From: a virus
Virus record (IMG/VR): IMGVR_UViG_3300045988_100580
Coordinates: 17,594 to 81,593 of that record
Length of the DNA stretch: 64,000 nt
Strand: one strand, 5' to 3'
Part shown: in pieces, positions 1 to 59,687 of the stretch
How the letters are laid out: each line of letters begins with the position of its first letter
How positions within the stretch are numbered: position 1 is the first letter of the stretch
Position numbers and translations under genes: made by a program
The notes under the pieces: model-generated
What the model saw: only the letters and a program-made list of their open reading frames with translations
What the model was told of the DNA's origin: nothing
Database searches by the model: none

Positions 1-90
1 AAAGAAAGCGAAGAAGATAAGAAAATGGCTTTGATTAATGCCGTGCTTCCCAATATACAGCTTCGCATTAAAGGCGTTACCGAAAATTAA
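1..90 (+). CDS. 3' end of an upstream CDS, truncated by the window edge (…KESEEDKKMALINAVLPNIQLRIKGVTEN*)
   Basis: Open frame from position 1 to TAA at 88-90; the start lies outside the window. Confidence 0.4.
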   Translation, partial: KESEEDKKMALINAVLPNIQLRIKGVTEN

Positions 91-124
91 AAAAAGATTG
101 TTTTTTTTCTTCATTAATAAATAG

Positions 125-196
125 AAGCCGGATTTGAGACTCGTTACACGGATACCGAAGGTTGAAGAACGATATCAAGATAATCCGGCTTTTTTG
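125..196 (+). terminator. Long-range inverted repeat AAGCCGGATT (125-134) / AATCCGGCTT (182-191) followed by a T5 run; possible terminator of the upstream gene
   Basis: 10-bp perfect inverted repeat with a 47-nt spacer (inner CGGATACCG mini-hairpin), then TTTTTGTGTG. The loop is longer than in a typical intrinsic terminator. Confidence 0.3.
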
Positions 197-351
197 TGTG
201 ATTTCGTGAAGGATGGAACTATCATCGCCTTGGTTTAACAGAACAGACCTACGTGCTTCCACTGTCCTGACGGTCATGGACGCTCGTCTCGCCTACTTCC
301 TGCCTAATTCTCCACTGGCTACCTAATATAACTATTAACGTCACTCCATCA

Positions 352-374
352 CCTATCTCCCTTCAGTCGATAGG
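352..374 (+). promoter_or_regulatory. Hairpin H1: stem CCTATC/GATAGG, loop TCCCTTCAGTC, followed by TTCAGTCG and T6
   Basis: First of three hairpins sharing an 11-nt loop with different, self-complementary stems. Seen directly in the sequence. Confidence 0.5.
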
Positions 375-409
375 TTCAGTCGTTTTTTAAATGTTATACG
401 TTCTTTCGC

Positions 410-430
410 ATCGTTCCCTTCGGTCACGAT
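410..430 (+). promoter_or_regulatory. Hairpin H2: stem ATCGT/ACGAT, loop TCCCTTCGGTC
   Basis: Same loop as H1 and H3 with a covarying stem; followed by ACTCAATC then TTTT. Confidence 0.5.
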
Positions 431-502
431 ACTCAATCTTTTAACACAATTAGGCAAACAATACAATAGACGGAAAAAGTAATTTGTCAATCCGTTCACT
501 CA

Positions 503-525
503 CTTAACTCCCTTCGGTCGTTAAG
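503..525 (+). promoter_or_regulatory. Hairpin H3: stem CTTAAC/GTTAAG, loop TCCCTTCGGTC
   Basis: Same loop with a covarying stem; followed by TTCATTCAC. Confidence 0.5.
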
Positions 526-749
526 TTCATTCACTGTAAACAATTATATGAATAAATGGTAAAGTATATAAAATAATATAAATAATATAATGAGTAAGAT
601 CATTGAAAATGGTCTTAATATTAAGGAAAACGGAGACTATTCATAGGCGTAGTTTTAATTCAAGATTTGTTGTCCCACCCCTGAAGGTCAGGAGGTTACG
701 TTCAGAACCGTTTTCCTGTCTCTTATCCAAACCGTCATAAAATAAAAAA

Positions 750-804
750 CCTTGTATCCTATTTCTCTCAAACCGGATACAAGGCAGTGCATTTTTTTCT
801 TTTT
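750..804 (+). terminator. Stem CCTTGTATCC (750-759) / GGATACAAGG (775-784) with T-rich tract at 792-804
   Basis: 10-bp perfect stem with a 15-nt loop. The T7 run starts 7 nt after the stem, which is not an ideal spacing. Confidence 0.35.
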
Positions 805-815
805 ATGTAAAATCA

Positions 816-823
816 TATATTTG
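816..823 (+). promoter_or_regulatory. Bacteroidota sigma-A -7 box TATATTTG (consensus TAnnTTTG), 19 nt upstream of ATG 843
   Basis: Exact match to the TAnnTTTG consensus in the right position relative to the first gene of the rightward block. Confidence 0.5.
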
Positions 824-842
824 CACTAAATACAAAAACAAC

Positions 843-1862
843 ATGAAGACAAAAATAACTGAAATAATGAATCCTCACAAGTTACACGACAAGCTCTTCA
901 AGAAAGAGCAGGTCTCTCCGATAGAAGTTATATACAATAGCTTCAGCAACTTAGGGTACAATGTAGTACGCCGTCCATCCGGTCAGTGTTTAGGCAATTT
1001 GAGATATTTTAATCTATTTTATGACAAGCATACTCATCATTTCTATCAGAAAGACAGGAAGTTGAGATATTGTAGCAACTTTCTCATATCTGATTACTGG
1101 AAAGATAGAGTGCGATGTTTCATAGTTTGGAACTTTGGCTTTGGAAGATTCTTTCCGTACAATGACTTTATTGAGGCTATGGTTTACGACTATCTCCGAT
1201 ATGGGAGAAAGTCAGTTCCTTATCTTAAAAGCGTGCAAGAGGCTGAAGAAAAGTGCGTAAGGTTCTATATCCGGTCTCAGATAGATATGCTCCGTAAGGA
1301 AGGATATGCTGCATATCGGGCTAAGTTTAAGGAAGAACGTCCTCAGTATTTCATCGGAGACGATAGGACGGTGTTTAGATGCCTTGACAGCTCTTTGAAA
1401 AGAGAAGAGAAGATTGCTGCATGCGTAGCCCACAAAAGGGCTTTAAAAGAAGGGATAATGACTTCCTTCATCAATCACCTTAAGAAACATCCTACCACTT
1501 TATATTCGTGGTTCTCGTCAGAGGTAGATAGCGAAGGAAAGAATAGGCTCTGTCTATCTGAAAAGGCTGTTTCGTATTTGAATAAGAGACTGGTTCGCAA
1601 TGGGTTAAAGTCTCTTTCTGCATCATATCTTTTTAGAACGTTTAGAAAAATGGTGAAGATCTTGTTCGGTTCCAATGTCAGGTCGTTTTTGAATAGCTGT
1701 CTGATGTCTGTTTCAACAGAAGAGGTTTTAACCAAATCTATGAAGAAAGTAGTTTCCAAGACGGTGCTGTTTTTGTACAAGAGAGCGCTTAAGAACTATC
1801 GCCGGGCATGCGGTCTTAAGTACGACCCTGATTCGGGCGGTTTGTCTGCCGTACATGATTGA
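843..1862 (+). CDS. Hypothetical protein, very basic (K/R-rich), 339 aa
   Basis: Long ORF preceded by a -7 promoter box. No motif recognised. A tyrosine-recombinase reading was considered and not supported. Confidence 0.6.
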   Translation: MKTKITEIMNPHKLHDKLFKKEQVSPIEVIYNSFSNLGYNVVRRPSGQCLGNLRYFNLFYDKHTHHFYQKDRKLRYCSNFLISDYWKDRVRCFIVWNFGFGRFFPYNDFIEAMVYDYLRYGRKSVPYLKSVQEAEEKCVRFYIRSQIDMLRKEGYAAYRAKFKEERPQYFIGDDRTVFRCLDSSLKREEKIAACVAHKRALKEGIMTSFINHLKKHPTTLYSWFSSEVDSEGKNRLCLSEKAVSYLNKRLVRNGLKSLSASYLFRTFRKMVKILFGSNVRSFLNSCLMSVSTEEVLTKSMKKVVSKTVLFLYKRALKNYRRACGLKYDPDSGGLSAVHD

Positions 1863-7700: not shown

Positions 7701-7830
7701 CGTGAAGGAGGCTGTTCAAGAACGTCTTGATCAGATGAGGGATCCGTATATGAGAGGAATAAATATCACGCCCAACATGAATGACAAGTTTAGTAAGTTG
7801 AACGATTTTTTGCAGAAAATTTATGGCTGA
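4771..7830 (+). CDS. Large protein, 1019 aa, GTG start overlapping the upstream stop; putative virion-associated
   Basis: 3-kb ORF. AGAAGGAGGA lies 8-17 nt upstream of the GTG. Translationally coupled on both ends (TAGTG and ATGGCTGA overlaps). Confidence 0.6.
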   Translation: MASQYSILRQYAPYVSPYNIDLVKDVMMYKQRKVDAAREKIYTQVDYLMGQEIDKPEARAYMEDKMSGVIANINQKFKGVDLSSDGVTRAIQGEISSVLDDTVINAIAGTKEGRRVMKEIESIKQNHPELYSPINEWHALDPYYKWRSDGKAGSRLGGLHYSPYVDYTKEINKLVSDFRKNNEGKKIQTTEYDVKGNPTGGIIEVNVDELTDSQIRNFVSANLSENMRNQMRIEASYMAATNPVFSNPDLVSQYIGSYVERYDRHIGALEAKKKSVGDNKDIIDRIDSQIQEAKNQKAEAKREADMIIASSDPVAAANFVVTNNLFDKMVDAWRYDNTSFERKKDDLYFARLAEDRAQQKFLTDNAKSMVEISLANEQLAQAKIETEYMRTYGSKMGTESSSGGTRGAGGVGVPMAPMDGPTAINSGTGKIGSVNLANIPYEQLTSSSTERRANLLKLYNSLSPTDRSNIVAASYEEEKTDPGLYANMTPEERIYSYLKNNGGQKNGYFGQGNNRLSEAYDALLLSDSKANGAAKAINNITDYQIDNIVTKKNKDIIRKVRNAKFMKGNSFMNLTNTDDKAGAFLLATAITTGVSDAVGFREYMMDPSRGIDILSAISPSLGAKVSAGKLGKNISDAITSENNGSSTGTLALINGMKKLNGDPDFNISDYMTIDKDGDIDLKDYQEGEPLTITQLRYAEKNSRVSDMIASQMQDEIKMSVSPDQISDKLSQYHYLDSYKRYNWNADSPEKSLQKAQFRRLSGYMAGKVNNLDPTAINAINMDTEIDNGTVRRFLTAQVGSGKNSYVTERVEITNDELLKAGIDPSVEERNYPVDGYKSSFETCDFVDTGKKEGYSYDKYLIRNGLPRLASKADVKNDLYDIVKVHGSYLKPEEMNVVKALVDNFIDMSDNISVQLEGMDDRGSREVAVNFYDKRTKNSKNPALLFSDFVPLDPGNDEYADYWNSIHQKCPQYFFVKYVKEAVQERLDQMRDPYMRGINITPNMNDKFSKLNDFLQKIYG

Positions 7831-10800
7831 CAATAATATAGATAGATATAATCCTGCTGCTAAAACCACTTACGAAGATGTGGCAAGGCAAAGAAAATTA
7901 GCCGAAGAAGAGAATTATACTCCGGCTACACTACCAGAGACGACAACGCCTCTGGTTCCTAATTATATGCCTGGTGAAGGTGTGTATGCCCAACCTAAAT
8001 TTCCGGATTACGCATCAAGGATAGCTGCTGCCGAATACGAAGAACCGTATATAGCCAAGGAGATAAGCAACAGCTACTCGGAGGCACTGGCTCGTAACAG
8101 CTACAGGGGGGCTACACCTGCCCCGCCGCCTCTTAATCCCTATGGACCAAAGGTAAGTATCCGTGAAAGTCATCAGATGGGTAATGATGGGGTATGGCGT
8201 ACAAAATATCCCAACTATATTCCGGGTATAAATAATGAGGATTATTATGCCAGGAGACAGAGCGGGTGGAGTAAGTTTTGGAATGGTGTAGGTAAATTCG
8301 CTTTAAAGTCTGCATTGTACGGTGCGCAAGGAGTTGTGTCATTGCCTGACAAACTTATCAATATGGCATCTGAGGGAAGTTACAAAGCTGCGTTAAACAC
8401 TAACATGGATAAGTTTGTAGGTGATCTTGACCAGCAAATAGACATGCTTCTTCCCCATTATTACAAGAAAGAGGTAGAAGATTATAATTTCGGTCAGAAG
8501 CTTTTTAAGGATACCGGTAATTTCTTATGGAATGATGTCCTTGGTAACGGTATGTCTTTTACCGTAGGAGCCATGATATCAGCGTACATGACCGGAGGAC
8601 TTGGAGTTGGATCATTGGGCAATATAGGTGCTAAATTAGGTGGAAGAATCGGAGCTAAGTTGGCAGCAAGGCAAGCTGCCAATAGGGGCATAGGAAGCCT
8701 TAAAAGCGTGTTTAACGACTATGTAAGAAAAGGAGTTGCCACCGGAAGAAATGTAGGGGAGGCGGCTAAGACCATGACGTTGTTGGCTACCAGTGCCGGA
8801 TTCGAGTCATCGGTTGAAGCAAATTCTTTTATGAAGCAATCCGAGTCTGATTTCAAGGATTATTATCGTAAGATTTATGGTCGTGATCCCAATGCAGAGG
8901 AAATGGCTGTTTTTCGTAATTCTAATGCTGATGTAGGTAGTGCTATATTTGCCGCCAATATGGGTATAGTAGGATTATCCAACTGGCTTCTTTTCGGTAA
9001 GTATATAGGGTTAGGAGGCAAGGCTATACCTGGGTTGGAAAAGAAGCTCAACAAGCATTTATTTGGATTAGGGACGGAAGTTGCGAAGCCGGGAGAGATG
9101 GCTATTAAAATAACCAATCCCAATATAGGACAGAAGATAGCAGGCAATGTTTTCAATATCATGAAAAGACCGGTATCTGAAGGATTATGGGAAGAAGGAT
9201 CTCAAGGTGCTGTCCAGAATACGGCTGAGGAATATGTTAAGTCAAGATATGATAATGTCGCCATGAACGGAGCCGTTGATGTTCTTGATGCTATTTCTGA
9301 AGGGTTTAAAAAGCAATATACGTCTAAAGAAGGATGGACTGAAATAGGAATCGGTGCTATTATCGGTTCTTTGTTCGGTATGAGGGAAGGCTTCTTTGGG
9401 GTGAAAGAGTATAGCAATAGTCAGATCTTGCTGGAAAGGCAAGTAAATGAATATAACAAAGCATCTTCTAATCTTAATACGGCGGCTTTGAATACGTTGA
9501 AAAAGTCAATGAGTTTAGGGCCTCAAGTTCGTTCCGATGCTCAGTCTATGACCGGCAAGGAGCTTGATGATGCAATGTTTGAAAAGATGTCGATTGACAA
9601 CCAAATGGGAACCTTAGAGGATTCGGCTGAAAATTTCAGGCAGATGGTTGATATGATGCCTATTTCGGAAATAGCCGAAGCCAACGGAATATCTTTGGAA
9701 GAGGCAAAGAAATACAAGGATTCTATTATTGATAATTATAATAATCGTCTTTCGGATTTCAGATCTGCCCAGAGTTTTGCCGAAGATCTTATAGGTGATG
9801 ATTCTAAGATTGAGTTTAGAAAATACGTGGCTCGTAATGCTTTTCTTGGCCTTCAATCAGAATCAAGGATGAAAGACATAGCTTCTGTCATAGAAACGCT
9901 TTCGGGTCAGCCTCGCGTGGCATATGCACTAAATACGTTCTCCCGGCTGTCAGACAGGGCAAGGGAGCGGGCGATGGCTATCCGTGGCATACGGTCAAGG
10001 ATAGAAGAACTTGAATCCGAAATAGAAGATCTTGCTACCCGCCCTCGTAACGTAGAAGGGAAAGATCCACAAGCTGAATCCATACAACGAAAAACCAAAG
10101 AATTGGAAAGTCTTAGAACCAATTATAACAATTCGTTGTCTGAGTTATCAACGTTAATAGGAAAAGAGTTTTCGATAGAAGAGTTGGTAAGTAAAACCGA
10201 ATCTGTTTTATCATCGCCTCTTTCTCCCATAAGTTCACAAGATGTAATAGAAGCCTATGATACGCTTGTGGCTTTTGATGATTATTTTAATGTAAAATCA
10301 AGACAGGAAAAGAAGTTTACAGCCAAAGACAAAGCCATGAGATCCTTGGTAAACGAATACCGTAGGAGTTTGATGGATTATAGGAATATGAATAACTTCT
10401 TATCTAAGATGCTTGATAAAAGATTCTTAGCTGAGGAAAACAGGGGATTTTCAAAAGCTCTGTCTTCTCTATGGTCTACTCCTTATAAGGGGGATGACAA
10501 GGTTCCTGATTTTGCAGAGCCTAATAAAGTTGGTGAATATGACACTGATGAGGTAGTAGATCAAGCTGTGTCAGAAGGTAAGATTTCGGAAGACGAAGCT
10601 TGGACTATCAAGGCTTTTATGCATGCTCTTGATAGAGTAAGGGAAGATAGGATGAAGGAGACAGAAGATGATATAAAAGAGTCACCGCTTACGGAGTCTG
10701 TATCGGATGAAGATTATGAGGCTGCTATGGATAATCCTATTATGGTTCCGGTAGTAAGGCAGTCTATAATTGATAAACTATATACAGGGAATGCCGATCT

Positions 10801-13800
10801 TCTTACTGCGAGAGAAAAAGATGTGTATGATAAATACAAACAAGATTTTGATGATTATGTATCGTCTTTAGGTGATAGTCCTGTTAATCTCATAAAATCA
10901 TTATCTGAGAAGGCTGATAGGCTTACAAGTCCGAGATCAGTATATGAGGAAAATAAAGCTATTATTGATATGGCTAAGTCTAATTTGGAGCCAGATCAAA
11001 GAAAGGAGCTTGATGATGCTATTTCTTCGTATGTTGATATAATGAACAGACGGGACAAAGGAGAGAAAGTTGACGAAGATAAGCTTGCTGATTCGGTGTT
11101 TACCATAGAAGATCTTGGCCAGGTTGGAAACATCACAGATCTCCTTCCTTATATCGAGCAAAACAGGATTATTGACAAAGGTCGTATTTCCGAATCTACG
11201 TTAAGTGATTTCGGGGAGGATGATGCTAACATAGATTCTCTTGTAAATGAGTTAGATGAATCCGATAATACGCCTGGAGCTAACATAGATAGCGCCCAGA
11301 ATCCAGAGACGTTGATGGTTAGAAGAATATCCAACGATGGCAACGAAAGGTATGAAATTGCAGGTCTTAGAGCCGATAAATTTATATCTTCTATAAAATC
11401 ATTGGTTCCTATTCAAATAAGCTCTGAAACGAACGCTAATGACACTAAAAGGTATTCTCTTAATATAGGTGGAGAAACGGCTACTATAATTGAATTGCCT
11501 TATCATGCGAGATGGTCTATAGACAAAGAATCGGCTCGTGTTCTTAACCGTTACACAGACGTGTCTATTCAGGACGTGGGTAATTCCTATTCTTTGGTTT
11601 ATAAGCGTCTTGATTCAGATGAATTGGTTCCGTACAGAACAGGTGTCGGATTCGGAGAGAATGAGGTAGATAAAATAGATCAGGAAGCATTATCTTCTTT
11701 GAAAAAAGGAGATAAGGTTAATCTCGAAATAGATGTAAATGATACCTATAATCAGTCTCTTTTTGCCGAATACAATGACGCTGTTCAGTCCGGCGATAAA
11801 AAAAGAATAGAATCTGCTGAGAATAAACTGGTATCCAATATGGTTATCAAGGTCATGAGTGGGAACAGATTCGTTTCTGTTGTAAAAGCTGATACAGGAG
11901 GCATAGATGGTATAAGTAAAATAAGAAGAACGGCTTTTAACAAGTGGAAGAAGGACGCCGGCCGGTCGGCTACCATCGGCGTCGGCACGCATGTTGTTGC
12001 CCAGACCCTTCCCGGAAGACCGGTGTTTAACATGAAGGTGAACGGTCAAGGATATGGCCAGGTAGAAAATCTCCCTATTACCGAAAAAGGTGCTGAAAAA
12101 GTATCTGATGTCGGATATGTATTAAATGGCAAAGTCGTGCTTAAGAACGGATCTAAATACACAGGCTTCCCATTTGCTTATTCTATATTAAATGACAAGG
12201 GGAATAATTACAAAAATGTAAGAGTTCCGGTAGTCGTCATCAAAGGTAAAAACGGTCTTAATTATCTTTTCCCAGTTAGCCTACGTTCTGTGGAATCAGA
12301 GGAAGGGCGGAAATGGATGTCTTTTATAGATATGCTGCTTGAATCCGGTGATTCTGAATTGCTACAGATGGGTCAAGATGATATACAAGATCTTAATGCG
12401 TATCTAACCAAGTTAGGTCTTGATCCGGCTTCGTATCAAGTATCGTATTTGAATCCTATTTCAGGTCTTAGAAAAGCTCGTGAGGCTATAGAAGAATTAT
12501 CTACAGTTCCTGATGTTGTTAAGTGGGTAGAAGATGGAAGTAGGAGTGTGAAAGACATTGTGACGTCTGAAGTAGAATCTGGAATAGATTTCGAAGGTGA
12601 GATGTTTGTTGCTCCTAAGATCAGGATTCAGTTTGGTAAATCATCTTCCAGACCTAAATCACTTATAGAGGATGATCTTCCTTTCTCTGATGAGGGTAAG
12701 ACCGTTACTTCTAAAGAAGACGTGGATGTTTATGAAGAGGAAATGCCAGAGGAAGGGGCTGTCCGGGAGACTCAGCCGGCGCCATTAGCTCAGCCGACTC
12801 CTGCGGCACAAGCTGCGCGGTCTTTACCTGGCAAGAAGCGTACCTCCAGGAAAAACTTCTCTCTTATGTTAAACGAAATAGAATCTCATATAGAAAAAGA
12901 AGGATTGCCGTCTTATGCTAATATTTTTGATTTTATAGCAAGGAAGATTGTAGGAGGTGATTTGAGGTTTCTTCGTGAGAGAGGTAACCCTAAAAGCCTT
13001 AAGGAAGAAATGGGATTAGAACCTAAAGGAACAGTAGGTGATAAAATATCCACTCCTTCCAGTAAAGGTGGTAAGACCTTAGAAGAATACGTTTCTTGGC
13101 TTCGTTCTCAAACAGATCAGGTGGTGGTTGATTATGTTGGGCCAAGATCTGACGAACAAATTATATCAGAGTTGAAAAACTTTTTGAAATATATTAATTT
13201 TGTTCCAAGCAAGGCTTTGAATTATTCTCTTAGAGTCAATGGCATGGATACCCTAAAAGAATATGGCACAAAAGAGGAAGTAGAAAAAATGGAATCTGAT
13301 ATCAATAGTTTGGTTTCTAAAGTTTTGCCTACGGTGGATAATAAAACTGTAGAAGATGTTTCTACTGCAATAAAATCAAACAACTTGCCTGCCATATGGG
13401 AGCCCGTGGAAAGCCTTGATATGACAAACGAGGAAAAAATAGAGTTTTTGAATAACGTAGCAGATTTCCTTAGCGGCATACCAGAGTATGATGCTGTCGT
13501 GGAGTCTATAGAGTCAGAATCAGATAATATTTTAAATGATGGAAAAGAAGGAAGTGCAGAAGGCGGTGCAGTACGCACTGAGGAAGATGGCGATAAAAAG
13601 GGAGATGGAGAAGGCAAAGGACAATCCAGAACAAATGTCGAAGTTGAAAGAAATGTCGAATTACCTGGATCTGAAGAAGGAAGAGTAGATAACTATAGGA
13701 AGAACGGAGATAAGTTCTCTGACATTGCTGAAGTTACTTTATGGCTACTTAGAAGGGCTGCCGGCATAACCTCTATCCCGGAAGGAGAAGAGGTTTATGT

Positions 13801-14464
13801 AGAGGGAGATGAGGTTAATAGTATTATGACCGATATGGAATCAAGGTATGGTATAGACACCATCAATCACTCGCATACGACTAAGGCTATAAGGGACCTT
13901 AACGGCGTATCAGGTTATAAAGTAGAATACGGCTTAACCTTTTTGACATACGATCCTTTTATTAGAATATCCAATCTAAGGAAAGGATCTAAGGCTGCGA
14001 AAGACGAACCTCGTATATCCGAAGAGTCGCTTACTCACATATCAAGGGTGACAACCCCTTATTTCCTGTACGGCGGCGATGAAGCATATACATCTGTTCC
14101 GGCTAAGGTAGAACCTATACCGGAGAAGATAATGGGTCGTAATGGCATTAAATTTGGTATGAGTGTAGTCGAGTTAACCAAATTAGGGTACAAAAAAGCT
14201 GGTGGAAACTGGATATATAAATTCTATATGAACTCAGGTGTGTATGATTTGTATAATATCAGTACCGGTGAAGCGTTTAGGGCAAAACCGGATCTTGGAG
14301 TTAAGATAAGTTCCAGCGCATTCATCCGTTCTTTATCTCAATCTGGTAGGAAAATACAAAATATGATTAGTAATATGAGCCAGGAAGAGATAGATAGGAA
14401 TAAGAATCTTGTAGAAGGTTCTGATAATTCGGATTCGATAAATGAGTTAAATAAGGAGTGTTAA
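7823..14464 (+). CDS. Giant protein, 2213 aa; candidate virion-packaged RNA polymerase or cargo protein (hypothesis only)
   Basis: 6.6-kb uninterrupted ORF. No catalytic motif identified by eye. Confidence 0.6.
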   Translation: MADNNIDRYNPAAKTTYEDVARQRKLAEEENYTPATLPETTTPLVPNYMPGEGVYAQPKFPDYASRIAAAEYEEPYIAKEISNSYSEALARNSYRGATPAPPPLNPYGPKVSIRESHQMGNDGVWRTKYPNYIPGINNEDYYARRQSGWSKFWNGVGKFALKSALYGAQGVVSLPDKLINMASEGSYKAALNTNMDKFVGDLDQQIDMLLPHYYKKEVEDYNFGQKLFKDTGNFLWNDVLGNGMSFTVGAMISAYMTGGLGVGSLGNIGAKLGGRIGAKLAARQAANRGIGSLKSVFNDYVRKGVATGRNVGEAAKTMTLLATSAGFESSVEANSFMKQSESDFKDYYRKIYGRDPNAEEMAVFRNSNADVGSAIFAANMGIVGLSNWLLFGKYIGLGGKAIPGLEKKLNKHLFGLGTEVAKPGEMAIKITNPNIGQKIAGNVFNIMKRPVSEGLWEEGSQGAVQNTAEEYVKSRYDNVAMNGAVDVLDAISEGFKKQYTSKEGWTEIGIGAIIGSLFGMREGFFGVKEYSNSQILLERQVNEYNKASSNLNTAALNTLKKSMSLGPQVRSDAQSMTGKELDDAMFEKMSIDNQMGTLEDSAENFRQMVDMMPISEIAEANGISLEEAKKYKDSIIDNYNNRLSDFRSAQSFAEDLIGDDSKIEFRKYVARNAFLGLQSESRMKDIASVIETLSGQPRVAYALNTFSRLSDRARERAMAIRGIRSRIEELESEIEDLATRPRNVEGKDPQAESIQRKTKELESLRTNYNNSLSELSTLIGKEFSIEELVSKTESVLSSPLSPISSQDVIEAYDTLVAFDDYFNVKSRQEKKFTAKDKAMRSLVNEYRRSLMDYRNMNNFLSKMLDKRFLAEENRGFSKALSSLWSTPYKGDDKVPDFAEPNKVGEYDTDEVVDQAVSEGKISEDEAWTIKAFMHALDRVREDRMKETEDDIKESPLTESVSDEDYEAAMDNPIMVPVVRQSIIDKLYTGNADLLTAREKDVYDKYKQDFDDYVSSLGDSPVNLIKSLSEKADRLTSPRSVYEENKAIIDMAKSNLEPDQRKELDDAISSYVDIMNRRDKGEKVDEDKLADSVFTIEDLGQVGNITDLLPYIEQNRIIDKGRISESTLSDFGEDDANIDSLVNELDESDNTPGANIDSAQNPETLMVRRISNDGNERYEIAGLRADKFISSIKSLVPIQISSETNANDTKRYSLNIGGETATIIELPYHARWSIDKESARVLNRYTDVSIQDVGNSYSLVYKRLDSDELVPYRTGVGFGENEVDKIDQEALSSLKKGDKVNLEIDVNDTYNQSLFAEYNDAVQSGDKKRIESAENKLVSNMVIKVMSGNRFVSVVKADTGGIDGISKIRRTAFNKWKKDAGRSATIGVGTHVVAQTLPGRPVFNMKVNGQGYGQVENLPITEKGAEKVSDVGYVLNGKVVLKNGSKYTGFPFAYSILNDKGNNYKNVRVPVVVIKGKNGLNYLFPVSLRSVESEEGRKWMSFIDMLLESGDSELLQMGQDDIQDLNAYLTKLGLDPASYQVSYLNPISGLRKAREAIEELSTVPDVVKWVEDGSRSVKDIVTSEVESGIDFEGEMFVAPKIRIQFGKSSSRPKSLIEDDLPFSDEGKTVTSKEDVDVYEEEMPEEGAVRETQPAPLAQPTPAAQAARSLPGKKRTSRKNFSLMLNEIESHIEKEGLPSYANIFDFIARKIVGGDLRFLRERGNPKSLKEEMGLEPKGTVGDKISTPSSKGGKTLEEYVSWLRSQTDQVVVDYVGPRSDEQIISELKNFLKYINFVPSKALNYSLRVNGMDTLKEYGTKEEVEKMESDINSLVSKVLPTVDNKTVEDVSTAIKSNNLPAIWEPVESLDMTNEEKIEFLNNVADFLSGIPEYDAVVESIESESDNILNDGKEGSAEGGAVRTEEDGDKKGDGEGKGQSRTNVEVERNVELPGSEEGRVDNYRKNGDKFSDIAEVTLWLLRRAAGITSIPEGEEVYVEGDEVNSIMTDMESRYGIDTINHSHTTKAIRDLNGVSGYKVEYGLTFLTYDPFIRISNLRKGSKAAKDEPRISEESLTHISRVTTPYFLYGGDEAYTSVPAKVEPIPEKIMGRNGIKFGMSVVELTKLGYKKAGGNWIYKFYMNSGVYDLYNISTGEAFRAKPDLGVKISSSAFIRSLSQSGRKIQNMISNMSQEEIDRNKNLVEGSDNSDSINELNKEC

Positions 14465-45709: not shown

Positions 45710-46700
45710 GATATTTCTCTTTTACCTTGTTATTAATTATCAAATCTGCCACATCATCTCCGTCTCCTACATTTTCAACATTTTGAAGATAGTCTGATAC
45801 TTTTATCCTTGACTTCATCATCATCCCATCTATCTTTTTACTCCATGTCTCAAATGCTTGTCCTTTGTCCGGAAAAGCTACAATCTTTCTATCTTTTAAA
45901 ACATCTATCACTTCCGGCCTTAGATTCTGCAACCCACCGGTAGCTACAAATAACTCATCCGGTTTATTCACAGCGCATATAATAGCCGTCTTTTCTGATT
46001 CCACCAAATTAACCACCTTATCCGGATACTGGCTTAGAAGATGCTCTCCGAACAGGCATTGTCTAAACAAGAAGTCTCTTGCATGCAACGAGTGATAAAA
46101 CATAACATGAGGCCGCTCATTGTCACCGTCTTTTTCCTTCACTCTTTTTACATCAATCTCATTCCCCTGGCTGTCGGTCTTTATATAAAAGTCCATGATC
46201 TTGCCGGTTCTACATACAAAGTCCTTATCTATCTGCCAGAATATACAACATCCTTTCCATCCCCATAAGTCCATTGTTCCGACATGATATCTTCTAAATA
46301 CGTCAGATACCCTTTCTTTTCCCCATAGAGACGATAAAAATCTAAATACGGTGTTTCTGTCGTCTGGAACCACAGTCCTCTCAAACTCGCTAAAAGGTAT
46401 GTAATTTACAACGTCAGGATTTACAGGAGGACGATAAGCTCTTATACACTTGTTTCCCGAAATCCAAAGATCTTTGTCGCCCACATCCTTGCCGGTAGGC
46501 CGTTTATCATAACCGCAAGTCCGTTCATGATCGCATCTTCCGAACTCGTTTCCAACAACCTGACCGGTCGCCACATCAATATAAGGAGTAAGGCACCGGC
46601 TTTTTCCGCAAGCCGGGCAGGTCAGCTTTAGTCGGCTCCTGCCAGGCCTGCGGTCAAGTTGAAACCGGGGTACGTTTTCGTATCTTCTAAAATCAAGCAT
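45687..46700 (-). CDS. DNA primase-like protein (N-terminal Cys4 zinc ribbon plus C-terminal TOPRIM-like region)
   Basis: CPACGK…CDHERTC zinc ribbon. ESEKTAI…FPDKGQ in a TOPRIM-like arrangement. Confidence 0.55.
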   Translation of the reverse strand: MLDFRRYENVPRFQLDRRPGRSRLKLTCPACGKSRCLTPYIDVATGQVVGNEFGRCDHERTCGYDKRPTGKDVGDKDLWISGNKCIRAYRPPVNPDVVNYIPFSEFERTVVPDDRNTVFRFLSSLWGKERVSDVFRRYHVGTMDLWGWKGCCIFWQIDKDFVCRTGKIMDFYIKTDSQGNEIDVKRVKEKDGDNERPHVMFYHSLHARDFLFRQCLFGEHLLSQYPDKVVNLVESEKTAIICAVNKPDELFVATGGLQNLRPEVIDVLKDRKIVAFPDKGQAFETWSKKIDGMMMKSRIKVSDYLQNVENVGDGDDVADLIINNKVKEKYHEPGCLY

Positions 46701-59402: not shown

Positions 59403-59687
59403 TTATACTGTCTCTGTTAGTTTTTCGTAATACAACTTCATTTCCGGTGAAGCGTATTCCATGAATGCTTCGAATAAGTGTGGTACCTCTATTATCATAT
59501 TCACATTACAACCTTCTGTCTGTGAAAGCGATTCAAGATCATTACTGTACAGGCACGTAACATAGGCACCTATATTAAATACATGCAAATCTATCCTTAC
59601 GTATTCTATACATGAAGACAATGCATTAAACAAATTCTTTACTTCATTCTTGTCAAAAAGTTCTACAAATTCTCTCAACCCCATCAT
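59403..59687 (-). CDS. Hypothetical protein, 94 aa
   Basis: ORF track. Confidence 0.45.
   Translation of the reverse strand: MMGLREFVELFDKNEVKNLFNALSSCIEYVRIDLHVFNIGAYVTCLYSNDLESLSQTEGCNVNMIIEVPHLFEAFMEYASPEMKLYYEKLTETV

Follow-up and report, generated by a model that had tools for sequence, protein, structure and literature searches.

What could three hairpins with one common core and unrelated stems be doing in a gene-free interval among the late genes of a gut phage? The DNA analyzed here, hereafter called the window, is a stretch of 64,000 nt from a viral record of IMG/VR, the first 5,000 positions of which are 97.7% identical to phage crAssE-Sib (OR575929, 151,256 bp), window position 1 corresponding to position 77,579 of that genome. 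CrAssE-Sib is an epsilon crAss-like phage of the human gut, an environment in which few viruses are as abundant as the Crassvirales; to our knowledge, hardly anything has been learned so far about the cis-regulatory signals or the non-coding RNAs of this group. As the initial annotation had proposed, the hairpins sit in a region of 750 nt that is free of genes, which extends from the end of a tail-lysozyme gene (near window position 90) to an open reading frame of 339 amino acids (843–1862). This annotation also placed the region at the head of a rightward block, a placement that has to be abandoned, since the tail-lysozyme gene lies on the plus strand like the 339-aa ORF, and so do the genes upstream of it for tens of kilobases. 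The locus is found within the late structural block, between the tail lysozyme and virion-protein genes, 78 kb into the 151 kb counted from the PhageTerm-predicted start, that is, in mid-genome. A Ro60 gene lies 3 kb upstream of the locus in crAssE-Sib, and TnpB genes are found 13–18 kb from the hairpin block. The interval goes unmentioned in the published genome paper of crAssE-Sib, and neither the hairpin element nor the cassette formed by this leader and the 339-aa gene is described in the literature that we searched.

The three hairpins, at 351–375, 408–432, and 502–526, were recovered where they had first been drawn, and they do share their supposed loop, the core TCCCTTCRGTC. With up to one mismatch, this core occurs in the 64-kb window at 358, 415, and 509 only, i.e., three matches within 162 nt, and a scan of 150 kb of the 151-kb crAssE-Sib genome returned the three homologous sites only. 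The motif count alone is not significant, at least three matches being obtained in 25 of 100 shuffles; what makes the cluster unusual is rather the combination of a fixed core with complementary flanking arms. A generic scan for clusters of hairpins in which the stems differ and the loop, 6 nt or longer, is identical detected this cluster alone in the window, added only tRNA T-arms when extended to the whole genome, and yielded a single cluster in ten shuffles (one in the fifth, none in each of the nine others). A covariance model built on 11 units matched the three copies at E-values of ~1e-12 to 1e-13, with a next match at E = 0.04, and gave no credible match beyond these three copies in the window and the genome, a match at 59635 being judged unconvincing. 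Other CCGAAGG sites (20641 and 20711) lie in coding sequence, have no arms, and were attributed to chance. The 289-nt block that holds the units is itself single-copy in the genome.

Each copy is part of a larger unit, given here in minus-strand sense:

345..381, minus strand: unit H1, ACCUAUC / GA-CU-GAA-GG-GA / GAUAGGU (covariance model 42.9 bits, E = 7e-12)
402..438, minus strand: unit H2, GUAUCGU / GA-CC-GAA-GG-GA / ACGAUGC, with one U.G pair (45.9 bits)
496..532, minus strand: unit H3, ACUUAAC / GA-CC-GAA-GG-GA / GUUAAGU (47.3 bits)

The stems had been described as 5–6 bp long and self-complementary; the self-complementarity stands, and their length has to be revised to seven pairs if G.U is allowed (351–357/369–375, 408–414/426–432, and 502–508/520–526), on the minus strand only. 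In the same manner, the 11-nt loop of the initial annotation does have a fixed sequence but is not unpaired, as it can be read on the minus strand as GA-CC-GAA-GG-GA, i.e., two base pairs capped by a GNA triloop and bracketed by GA/GA. From what is established about RNA and DNA structure, we propose that this symmetrical bracket would form tandem sheared G.A pairs. The (T)TCA said to trail each hairpin is present as well and turns out to belong to flanks that are conserved on both sides (CGTTCTYTC … YTCANTC in plus sense), which bring the units to ~37–45 nt; in minus sense, a unit reads GAYUGA, stem-loop, GARAGAACG, with the purine-rich flanks GACUGA … GAUGGA in H1.

The minus-strand folds of all three copies range from −10.8 to −11.8 kcal/mol (z from −3.4 to −5), against −5 to −7.3 kcal/mol for the plus-strand folds (z = −1.8 for H2), in which U.C/C.U mismatches remain. 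Across ~280 related loci, seven independent stem positions show a G.U on the minus strand and one an A.C (by our own arithmetic, 7 vs. 1 sites give a one-sided binomial p of ~0.035), and the G.U alleles are the majority state among these loci. Since seven of the sites wobble on the bottom strand and one on the other, the bottom strand is taken to be the folded one, a call based on these eight polymorphic sites and on the folding energies.

To place the units in their context, the remaining parts of the cassette are listed below:

125..197, plus strand: intrinsic terminator of the tail-lysozyme gene, with an outer stem 125–134/182–191 followed by T6
240..330, no strand assigned: conserved block, pyrimidine-rich on the plus strand, GCCTCGCCTAC..CCTGCC..TTMTCCACTGGCTAC, purine fraction 0.30–0.43
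314..602, no strand assigned: 289-nt block with the three units and an AT-rich stretch, cleanly missing in lineage L060, where its flanks are intact
540..602, no strand assigned: AT-rich stretch, 83–90% A+T, with (A)TGAATAA-type repeats, found after the last unit in every lineage
603..738, no strand assigned: conserved block, among the best-conserved leader parts in close relatives, nearly invariant over 603–680
739..784, minus strand: leftward intrinsic terminator, with a stem 750–759/775–784, a conserved loop, and a U-run (749–739) directly after the stem
816..823, plus strand: −7 promoter box of the Bacteroidetes type, TATATTTG, which precedes the ATG by 20 nt and is kept in each of the six lineages examined
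843..1862, plus strand: gene of a basic 339-aa protein (pI 9.8, no family assigned), the constant partner of the leader

The terminator of the lysozyme gene contains, on its plus strand, a nested capped stem (154–162, ACC-GAA-GGU) that resembles the core of the units; between the window and lineage L208, four compensatory pairs are seen in its outer stem and one in its inner stem, and this arrangement is found only in cassettes at the genome position occupied in the window. The plus-strand sequence 155–161 is complementary to the hairpin cores. At the other end of the leader, the 750–784 hairpin was identified as a leftward intrinsic terminator on the grounds of its minus-strand fold and adjoining U-run: its stems covary across lineages, and in L210 it folds on the minus strand only, through G.U pairs (−17.2 vs. 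−6.8 kcal/mol). Between these two landmarks, the segment 240–540 is purine-rich on the minus strand, resembling the sense strands of the genome, and the segment 655–700 is conserved across distant lineages, with a small CUGA-NNN-UCAG hairpin at 681–691. No consensus fold was obtained for the 240–330 block on either strand (RNAalifold −7.4 and −5.6 kcal/mol), and no conserved fold in the leader beyond the hairpins. Inside the leader, we found no Bacteroidetes-type promoter (TAnnTTTG) on either strand, and a scan for sigma-70-like promoters gave matches only at chance level, the −10-like hexamers to the right of the last unit included; leftward of H1, no clear terminator was found for the minus strand.

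Does this organization extend to relatives? A search of INPHARED matched crAssE-Sib alone, and IMG/VR provided ~200 contigs near-identical to the window locus, while searches with the 339-aa protein brought further lineages at 83%, 61%, 44%, 41%, 25%, and 22% identity. A gene-free leader of 540–1,100 nt precedes every homolog with available upstream sequence (the 41% lineage, cut off at a contig end, being left out of this count), and long leaders are also present before homologs with as little as 22–25% identity (L214–L216). The order of the parts is common to lineages down to 44% identity and largely to L216 too: a C-rich block, two to four copies of the motif, the AT-rich stretch, the conserved block, the hairpin with a conserved loop, TAnnTTTG, and the ATG. 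In every one of the 60 informative loci, a family member with the same orientation lies 350–590 nt downstream of the array. As a separate observation, the purine-strand hairpins of L214 may be flipped relative to the gene. The cassette of the 61% lineage is located elsewhere in the genome, with a DUF6808 gene on one side and a structural gene on the other, a site at which crAssE-Sib has 84 nt only; according to the motif scan, cassettes are found at these two positions, and many contigs carry both. As for the protein itself, it has no recognizable RNA-binding domain, a structure comparison returned no match, and Rep3_C was hit weakly by two of 11 family members (E = 0.03).

The number of copies in the array is two, three, or four among relatives, and none in L060, in which window positions 314–602 are missing, so that all three copies and the AT-rich stretch are gone. 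We rejected the possibility that L060 represents an insertion-free ancestor: there is no target duplication, and the breakpoint cuts a block that is conserved in all lineages, which implies that the L060 state is a deletion and not the trace of an insertion elsewhere.

The different lineages also provided the 11 units of the covariation alignment, in which 77.8% of the cells are paired, against 64% in shuffles and 32–48% when the partners are slid. Changes on both sides are seen in seven of nine pairs, and the covariation score of 0.477, against 0.234, was reached by none of 500 shuffles. The arms are as unrelated in sequence, and each as self-complementary, as first reported, and they covary among relatives. 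For example, the middle copy has ATCGT/ACGAT in the window and ATATC/GATAT in L208, i.e., three double compensatory changes, and the inner pair 3:9, which is C:G in most copies, is G:C in copy a of L204 and A:U in copy c of L208. The inner pair 4:8 of H1 is U.G in the window and C-G, U.G, or U-A among close relatives, and the H3 variants of relatives have three further G.U pairs on the minus strand. Among near-identical contigs, the stems are invariant and the cap is polymorphic; some relatives carry AAA, GUA, or GGA loops, and in L211 (44% identity) the cap has turned into C-GUGA-G, a GNRA tetraloop that still stands between two GA dinucleotides.

Not all copies are palindromic. Copies a and c of L204 and L208, as well as both copies of L211, have only ~3–7 Watson–Crick pairs, their closure depending on G.A pairs and a bulge. 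When paired by hand, the non-palindromic copies of these three lineages can still be closed on the purine strand by a second tandem G.A together with Watson–Crick pairs, and one pair changes from C-G to U-A in a compensatory manner; RNAfold did not find the proposed folds of these copies significant. Closure through G.A on the purine strand implies that these copies need a strand that is already single. The search of relatives to which the initial annotation had pointed did find arrays of the motif, yet with flanking inverted repeats that are imperfect in L204, L208, and L211, and with no array in L060. Its suggestion of a protein-recognized DNA or RNA hairpin holds in its core: the stems change while their pairing is kept (77.8% vs. 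64%) around a fixed cap sequence, the mark of a single-stranded hairpin recognized by some factor. Overall, the hairpins exist, covary, favor the minus strand, vary in copy number, and are strictly linked to a protein family.

What, then, might these elements be? We tentatively read them as repeated protein-binding stem-loop modules of a leftward non-coding RNA. A two-part cassette, made of the leader and the 339-aa gene, would give rise to a leftward non-coding transcript from its leader, whose transcription across the array would perhaps start in the AT-rich stretch, near 536–545. Each module would then stack a variable 7-bp stem, the tandem sheared G.A, two G-C-type pairs, and the GNA triloop, with conserved single strands rich in purines on either side (GAYUGA … GARAGAACG); cap and flanks together would offer a recognition surface to a protein. 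We infer such protein binding from the constancy of these parts; the most economical binder would be the neighboring 339-aa basic protein or, failing that, a host factor titrated by the RNA. Stems that differ between copies would allow each module to fold locally, without pairing to its neighbors.

Several features lead us to favor RNA modules of this kind, and RNA rather than single-stranded DNA as the probable folded molecule. The G.U alleles are the majority state, the non-palindromic copies require a single strand from the outset in order to fold, a GNRA tetraloop can replace the cap, the neighboring RNA terminator encloses a related stem capped by CC-GAA-GG, the 240–540 segment has the purine-rich composition of sense strands, and a copy number that varies (0, 2–4) suits titrating or multi-site RNAs with redundant modules. 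The strict linkage between array and gene in the 60 loci is also counted on this side. Against a leftward RNA, one has to count the absence of TAnnTTTG from the leader, sigma-70-like matches that do not exceed chance, the lack of a clear leftward terminator beyond H1, and the strong leftward terminator at 784–739, which blocks transcripts coming from the side of the gene. The lack of a conserved leader fold outside the hairpins and of a recognizable RNA-binding domain in the neighboring protein count on this side too. Moreover, G.T pairs, tandem G.A, and GNA loops are stable in single-stranded DNA too, so the choice between RNA and DNA is not settled by them.

This last point matters because the initial annotation had envisaged hairpin promoters of the N4 type, that is, single-stranded DNA hairpins whose bottom strand would be the template and which would be recognized by the virion-packaged RNA polymerase (RNAP) of the phage. 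Rightward transcription would then start at the conserved YTCANTC past the stem and proceed through the leader into the 339-aa gene, making of the whole an autonomous early-expression cassette. In N4, the rule is a 3-nt loop on the template strand (5′ G, 3′ A) with a C:G closing pair, within a GC-rich heptamer and inverted repeats (PMC4496689), and the bottom-strand caps do obey it, with CC-GAA-GG in H2 and H3, CU-GAA-GG in H1, and arms of seven pairs. There are three copies here, the sequence of the inverted repeats is free, transcription toward the adjacent gene would use the folded strand as its template, the orientation of the array relative to this gene is fixed (60/60 loci), and the 739–784 hairpin terminates leftward transcription only, so that rightward transcripts could pass. 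Single-stranded and denatured DNA can serve as templates for the crAss-type RNAP of phi14:2, and a virion polymerase of this kind is reported for crAssE-Sib, according to the HHpred result published in its genome paper; in the giant ORFs of the window, a DFDxD motif and a PDB match for the virion RNAP were not confirmed. However, if the three copies of the window are inverted repeats good enough for cruciform extrusion, most copies of L204, L208, and L211 are so imperfect that they could not extrude from duplex DNA, and the G.T pairs of the majority alleles penalize extrusion further. The array is also located in mid-genome from the PhageTerm-predicted start, inside the late structural block and not at the first-entering end; the motif occurs nowhere else in the genome, presumptive early regions included, and is confined to an accessory cassette; and one relative, L060, is devoid of the whole array. 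Both flanks are conserved, and not the start-site side alone, YTCANTC lying 1–3 nt past the stem and the opposite flank being equally conserved. In phi14:2, the early transcripts have no common motif, our scan of the early region (first 12 kb) found no comparable hairpins, and the crAss RNAP is unrelated to the T7-like enzyme of N4. The cap rule and the three copies thus fit N4-type promoters, whereas the extrudable repeats fail in relatives and the genome position does not fit. On balance, N4-type promoters appear to us rather unlikely, and it is with the same doubt that we mention what they would represent, namely the first recognizable promoters of a crAss-type (two-barrel) virion RNAP, convergent with those of N4.

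Two other readings are less supported than either leftward RNA modules or N4-type promoters. The hairpins could form an origin-like or other DNA-level cis site, with iteron-like or hairpin/cruciform sites for the adjacent basic protein, in which the AT-rich stretch would help to unwind the duplex, or the hairpins would signal priming on single-stranded DNA. With respect to the features of iteron origins, such a stretch is present, the repeats are irregularly spaced, their arms show covariation that favors one strand, and toward a Rep-family initiator there is the Rep3_C hit of two of 11 family members, with no structural match; the packaging or origin element put forward initially gained no positive support beyond the AT-rich stretch, and we regard a site of this kind as quite improbable. 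It is slightly more improbable still that the elements act in plus-strand RNA, as pause, processing, or stability sites of a rightward read-through or leader RNA, with the C-rich upstream block loading Rho and thereby shielding the cassette from the late operon. A plus-sense RNA is the easiest to imagine, since all neighboring genes are rightward; the upstream block has much C and little G and, in L204, contains CCTAC-type repeats at intervals of ~12 nt, and the complementarity of plus-strand positions 155–161 to the hairpin cores could be counted in its favor. But the plus-strand folds are weak (−5 to −7.3 kcal/mol) and leave U.C/C.U mismatches, the non-canonical positions would be C.A at seven of the eight sites, and the copies without palindromic arms fail to fold on that strand.

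A number of known identities were also considered and set aside. Searched with cmscan against Rfam (E up to 10), window positions 1–1200 gave chance matches only, with none above noise over the hairpins. A Y RNA or YrlA associated with the Ro60 gene was rejected, given that no model matched and that a long distance separates the second cassette position from Ro60. No tRNA was predicted in the window by ARAGORN, and an isolated T-arm (TTCRANY with a 5-bp stem) does not fit, the plus-strand TTCRGTC being without A58 and asymmetric in the loop. In L154, the loop of H1 carries an indel of 2 nt that rules out an overlapping 48-aa ORF, from which it follows that the hairpins are not coding, and non-triplet indels also separate the lineages. 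Ends of mobile elements (IS200/IS605, REP/RAYT, or MITE) were rejected because the 289-nt block is single-copy and the TnpB genes are 13–18 kb off; no copies of this block were found in representative bacterial genomes either. An invertible promoter was dismissed on account of the inverted repeat 265–279/679–693 not being conserved in other lineages, and a large structured RNA over the GC-rich block on account of the missing consensus fold on either strand.

On the basis of sequence comparison, we rate the array as repeated, presumably protein-recognized stem-loops attached to a new protein family. Whatever its nature, the element is sharply delimited, conserved, and covarying; its strand is clear, and it comes with a defined candidate recognition surface and a constant protein partner. 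If it acts as RNA, it would define a new phage non-coding RNA, paired with a protein and spreading with it as a cassette. If it were a DNA hairpin promoter, it would answer how the virion polymerase of crAss-like phages finds its start sites, a promoter specificity that has long been missing, and would imply an early rightward expression of a movable cassette gene.

Among known systems, the hairpin promoters P1–P3 of N4 come to mind at once: there too, three copies lie close together, with a GC-rich heptamer, a 3-nt G-N-A loop closed by C:G, and a single strand involved; there too, the inverted repeats are free in sequence as long as they pair, conserved sequence lies beside the stem, and the phage carries a virion RNAP (reported, in the present case) that prefers single-stranded templates. 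Unlike P1–P3, the stems are longer here (~11 stacked pairs) and include tandem G.A, most copies in relatives are not palindromic in duplex DNA, and the array is located in mid-genome, in a late block instead of the first-injected end, and only in an accessory cassette that can be lost. Besides, the two-barrel RNAP of crAss-like phages and the vRNAP of N4 are unrelated enzymes. As extrudable repeats fail in the relatives and position fails here, membership in the N4 class cannot be claimed.

The array likewise recalls the hairpin/cruciform that follows the variable repeat of diversity-generating retroelements (DGRs), of which the same phage has a version with three tandem hairpins, different stems, and an identical C-GCA-G cap (crAssE-Sib 45915–45975); that set is on the sense strand of the target gene and next to VR/IMH, whereas the array described here adjoins no VR, TR, or reverse transcriptase. 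The boxB of lambda nut is also a short phage hairpin, in which a basic protein reads a fixed loop rich in purines, but it has a GNRA-like pentaloop and a conserved stem, occurs once per operon, and lies downstream of an early promoter along with boxA, when the present array is beyond a terminator and not before it. With RNAs of the CsrB/RsmZ type and with coat-protein operator hairpins, it shares one short motif on unrelated stems, a variable copy number, and stems that differ so that each module folds alone; the motif differs, being GA / CC-GNA-GG / GA here and a GGA loop in Csr/Rsm RNAs, and we know of no CsrA in Bacteroidales. Several hairpins with one motif on variable, covarying stems are what one expects of a multi-hairpin protein-binding RNA, and this is what the array displays; as with N4, membership in this class cannot be claimed. 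In design, it is thus closest to the P1–P3 promoters of N4, and in its likely behavior, to multi-hairpin protein-binding RNAs.

The array of three hairpins (H1-H3) is missing from the related contig L060 (IMGVR_UViG_3300045988_114765), where a clean 289-nt deletion, equivalent to positions 314-602 of the window, takes out all three units together with the AT-rich stretch. The deletion leaves intact the conserved flanks as well as the downstream gene and its promoter. Array size was also observed to vary between close relatives: L273 has two copies and lacks the middle one, L274 has four by way of a 106-nt tandem duplication, and in L268 the middle copy is partly duplicated internally.

From a wider perspective, the cassette formed by the non-coding leader and its gene (window 90-1862) has a paralogue (L204-L207, L210, L219-L280), the proteins being 61% identical and the two cassettes occupying separate genome positions at a distance of about 37 kb; both are present in many contigs, and crAssE-Sib has one. 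The proteins P0002 and P0009 share their N-terminal half and differ in their C-terminal half, a pattern that indicates recombination within the gene. We also found a homologue with 25% identity (L214/L215, 2905-4001), whose leader is 1.1 kb long. This leader harbors a GTAGG-repeat block and GA-bracketed mini-hairpins on the plus strand, and because of this strand, both elements may be inverted with respect to the gene; whether this leader is homologous to that of the window is uncertain.

Two further structured elements are found on either side of the array:

739-784, minus strand: hairpin separating the array from the gene, with stems that covary and a loop that is conserved (plus-sense CTATTTCTCTCAAACC)
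125-197, plus strand: tail-lysozyme terminator with an unusually large conserved interior of 47 nt

As the counterpart of the 739-784 hairpin in L210 folds on the minus strand only, and as a U-run follows the hairpin on that same strand, this element is a one-way intrinsic terminator, acting leftward. A TAnnTTTG box also lies on the minus strand at 857-850, with equivalents in L204 and L211; a short antisense RNA, about 100 nt long and ending at this terminator, could be transcribed from it. As for the tail-lysozyme terminator, comparison of the window with L208 reveals four compensatory pairs in its outer stem. Its 47-nt interior forms a nested stem with an ACC-GAA-GGU cap; this nested stem is similar to the core of H1-H3, except that it is on the other strand, and it gave no match to the covariance model of the hairpin unit.

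Between this terminator and the array in the window (240-345), and at 4300-4440 in L204, there is a block whose plus strand is strongly C-rich and G-poor, with CCTAC-type repeats about 12 nt apart in L204 and a DnaA-box-like TTATCCACT, the window version of which is TTCTCCACT. This block is conserved in sequence but has no conserved fold; it may serve for Rho loading or for the binding of a protein.

A virion RNAP has been reported for crAssE-Sib (published genome paper), and the window encodes two giant ORFs:

7823-14464: ORF of 2213 aa
22645-29067: ORF of 2140 aa

Both matched only PHROGs annotated as 'virion structural protein' or unknown, both lack the DFDxD motif, and neither had a sequence match in the PDB.

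Other genes of crAssE-Sib are located before the window, all at most 20 kb upstream of the array, and a second set of hairpins lies outside the window in the same record:

crAssE-Sib (L083) 58986-65413 and 72756-74725: two TnpB genes, two tRNAs and one Ro60-related protein gene (reference annotation)
crAssE-Sib (L082) 45915-45975: three tandem hairpins with an identical C-GCA-G cap

The latter hairpins, whose stems differ (TGATGG, TAAGG and ACGG), stand directly downstream of the variable repeat and IMH annotated for the DGR and, like H1-H3, combine three copies and a same cap with different stems.
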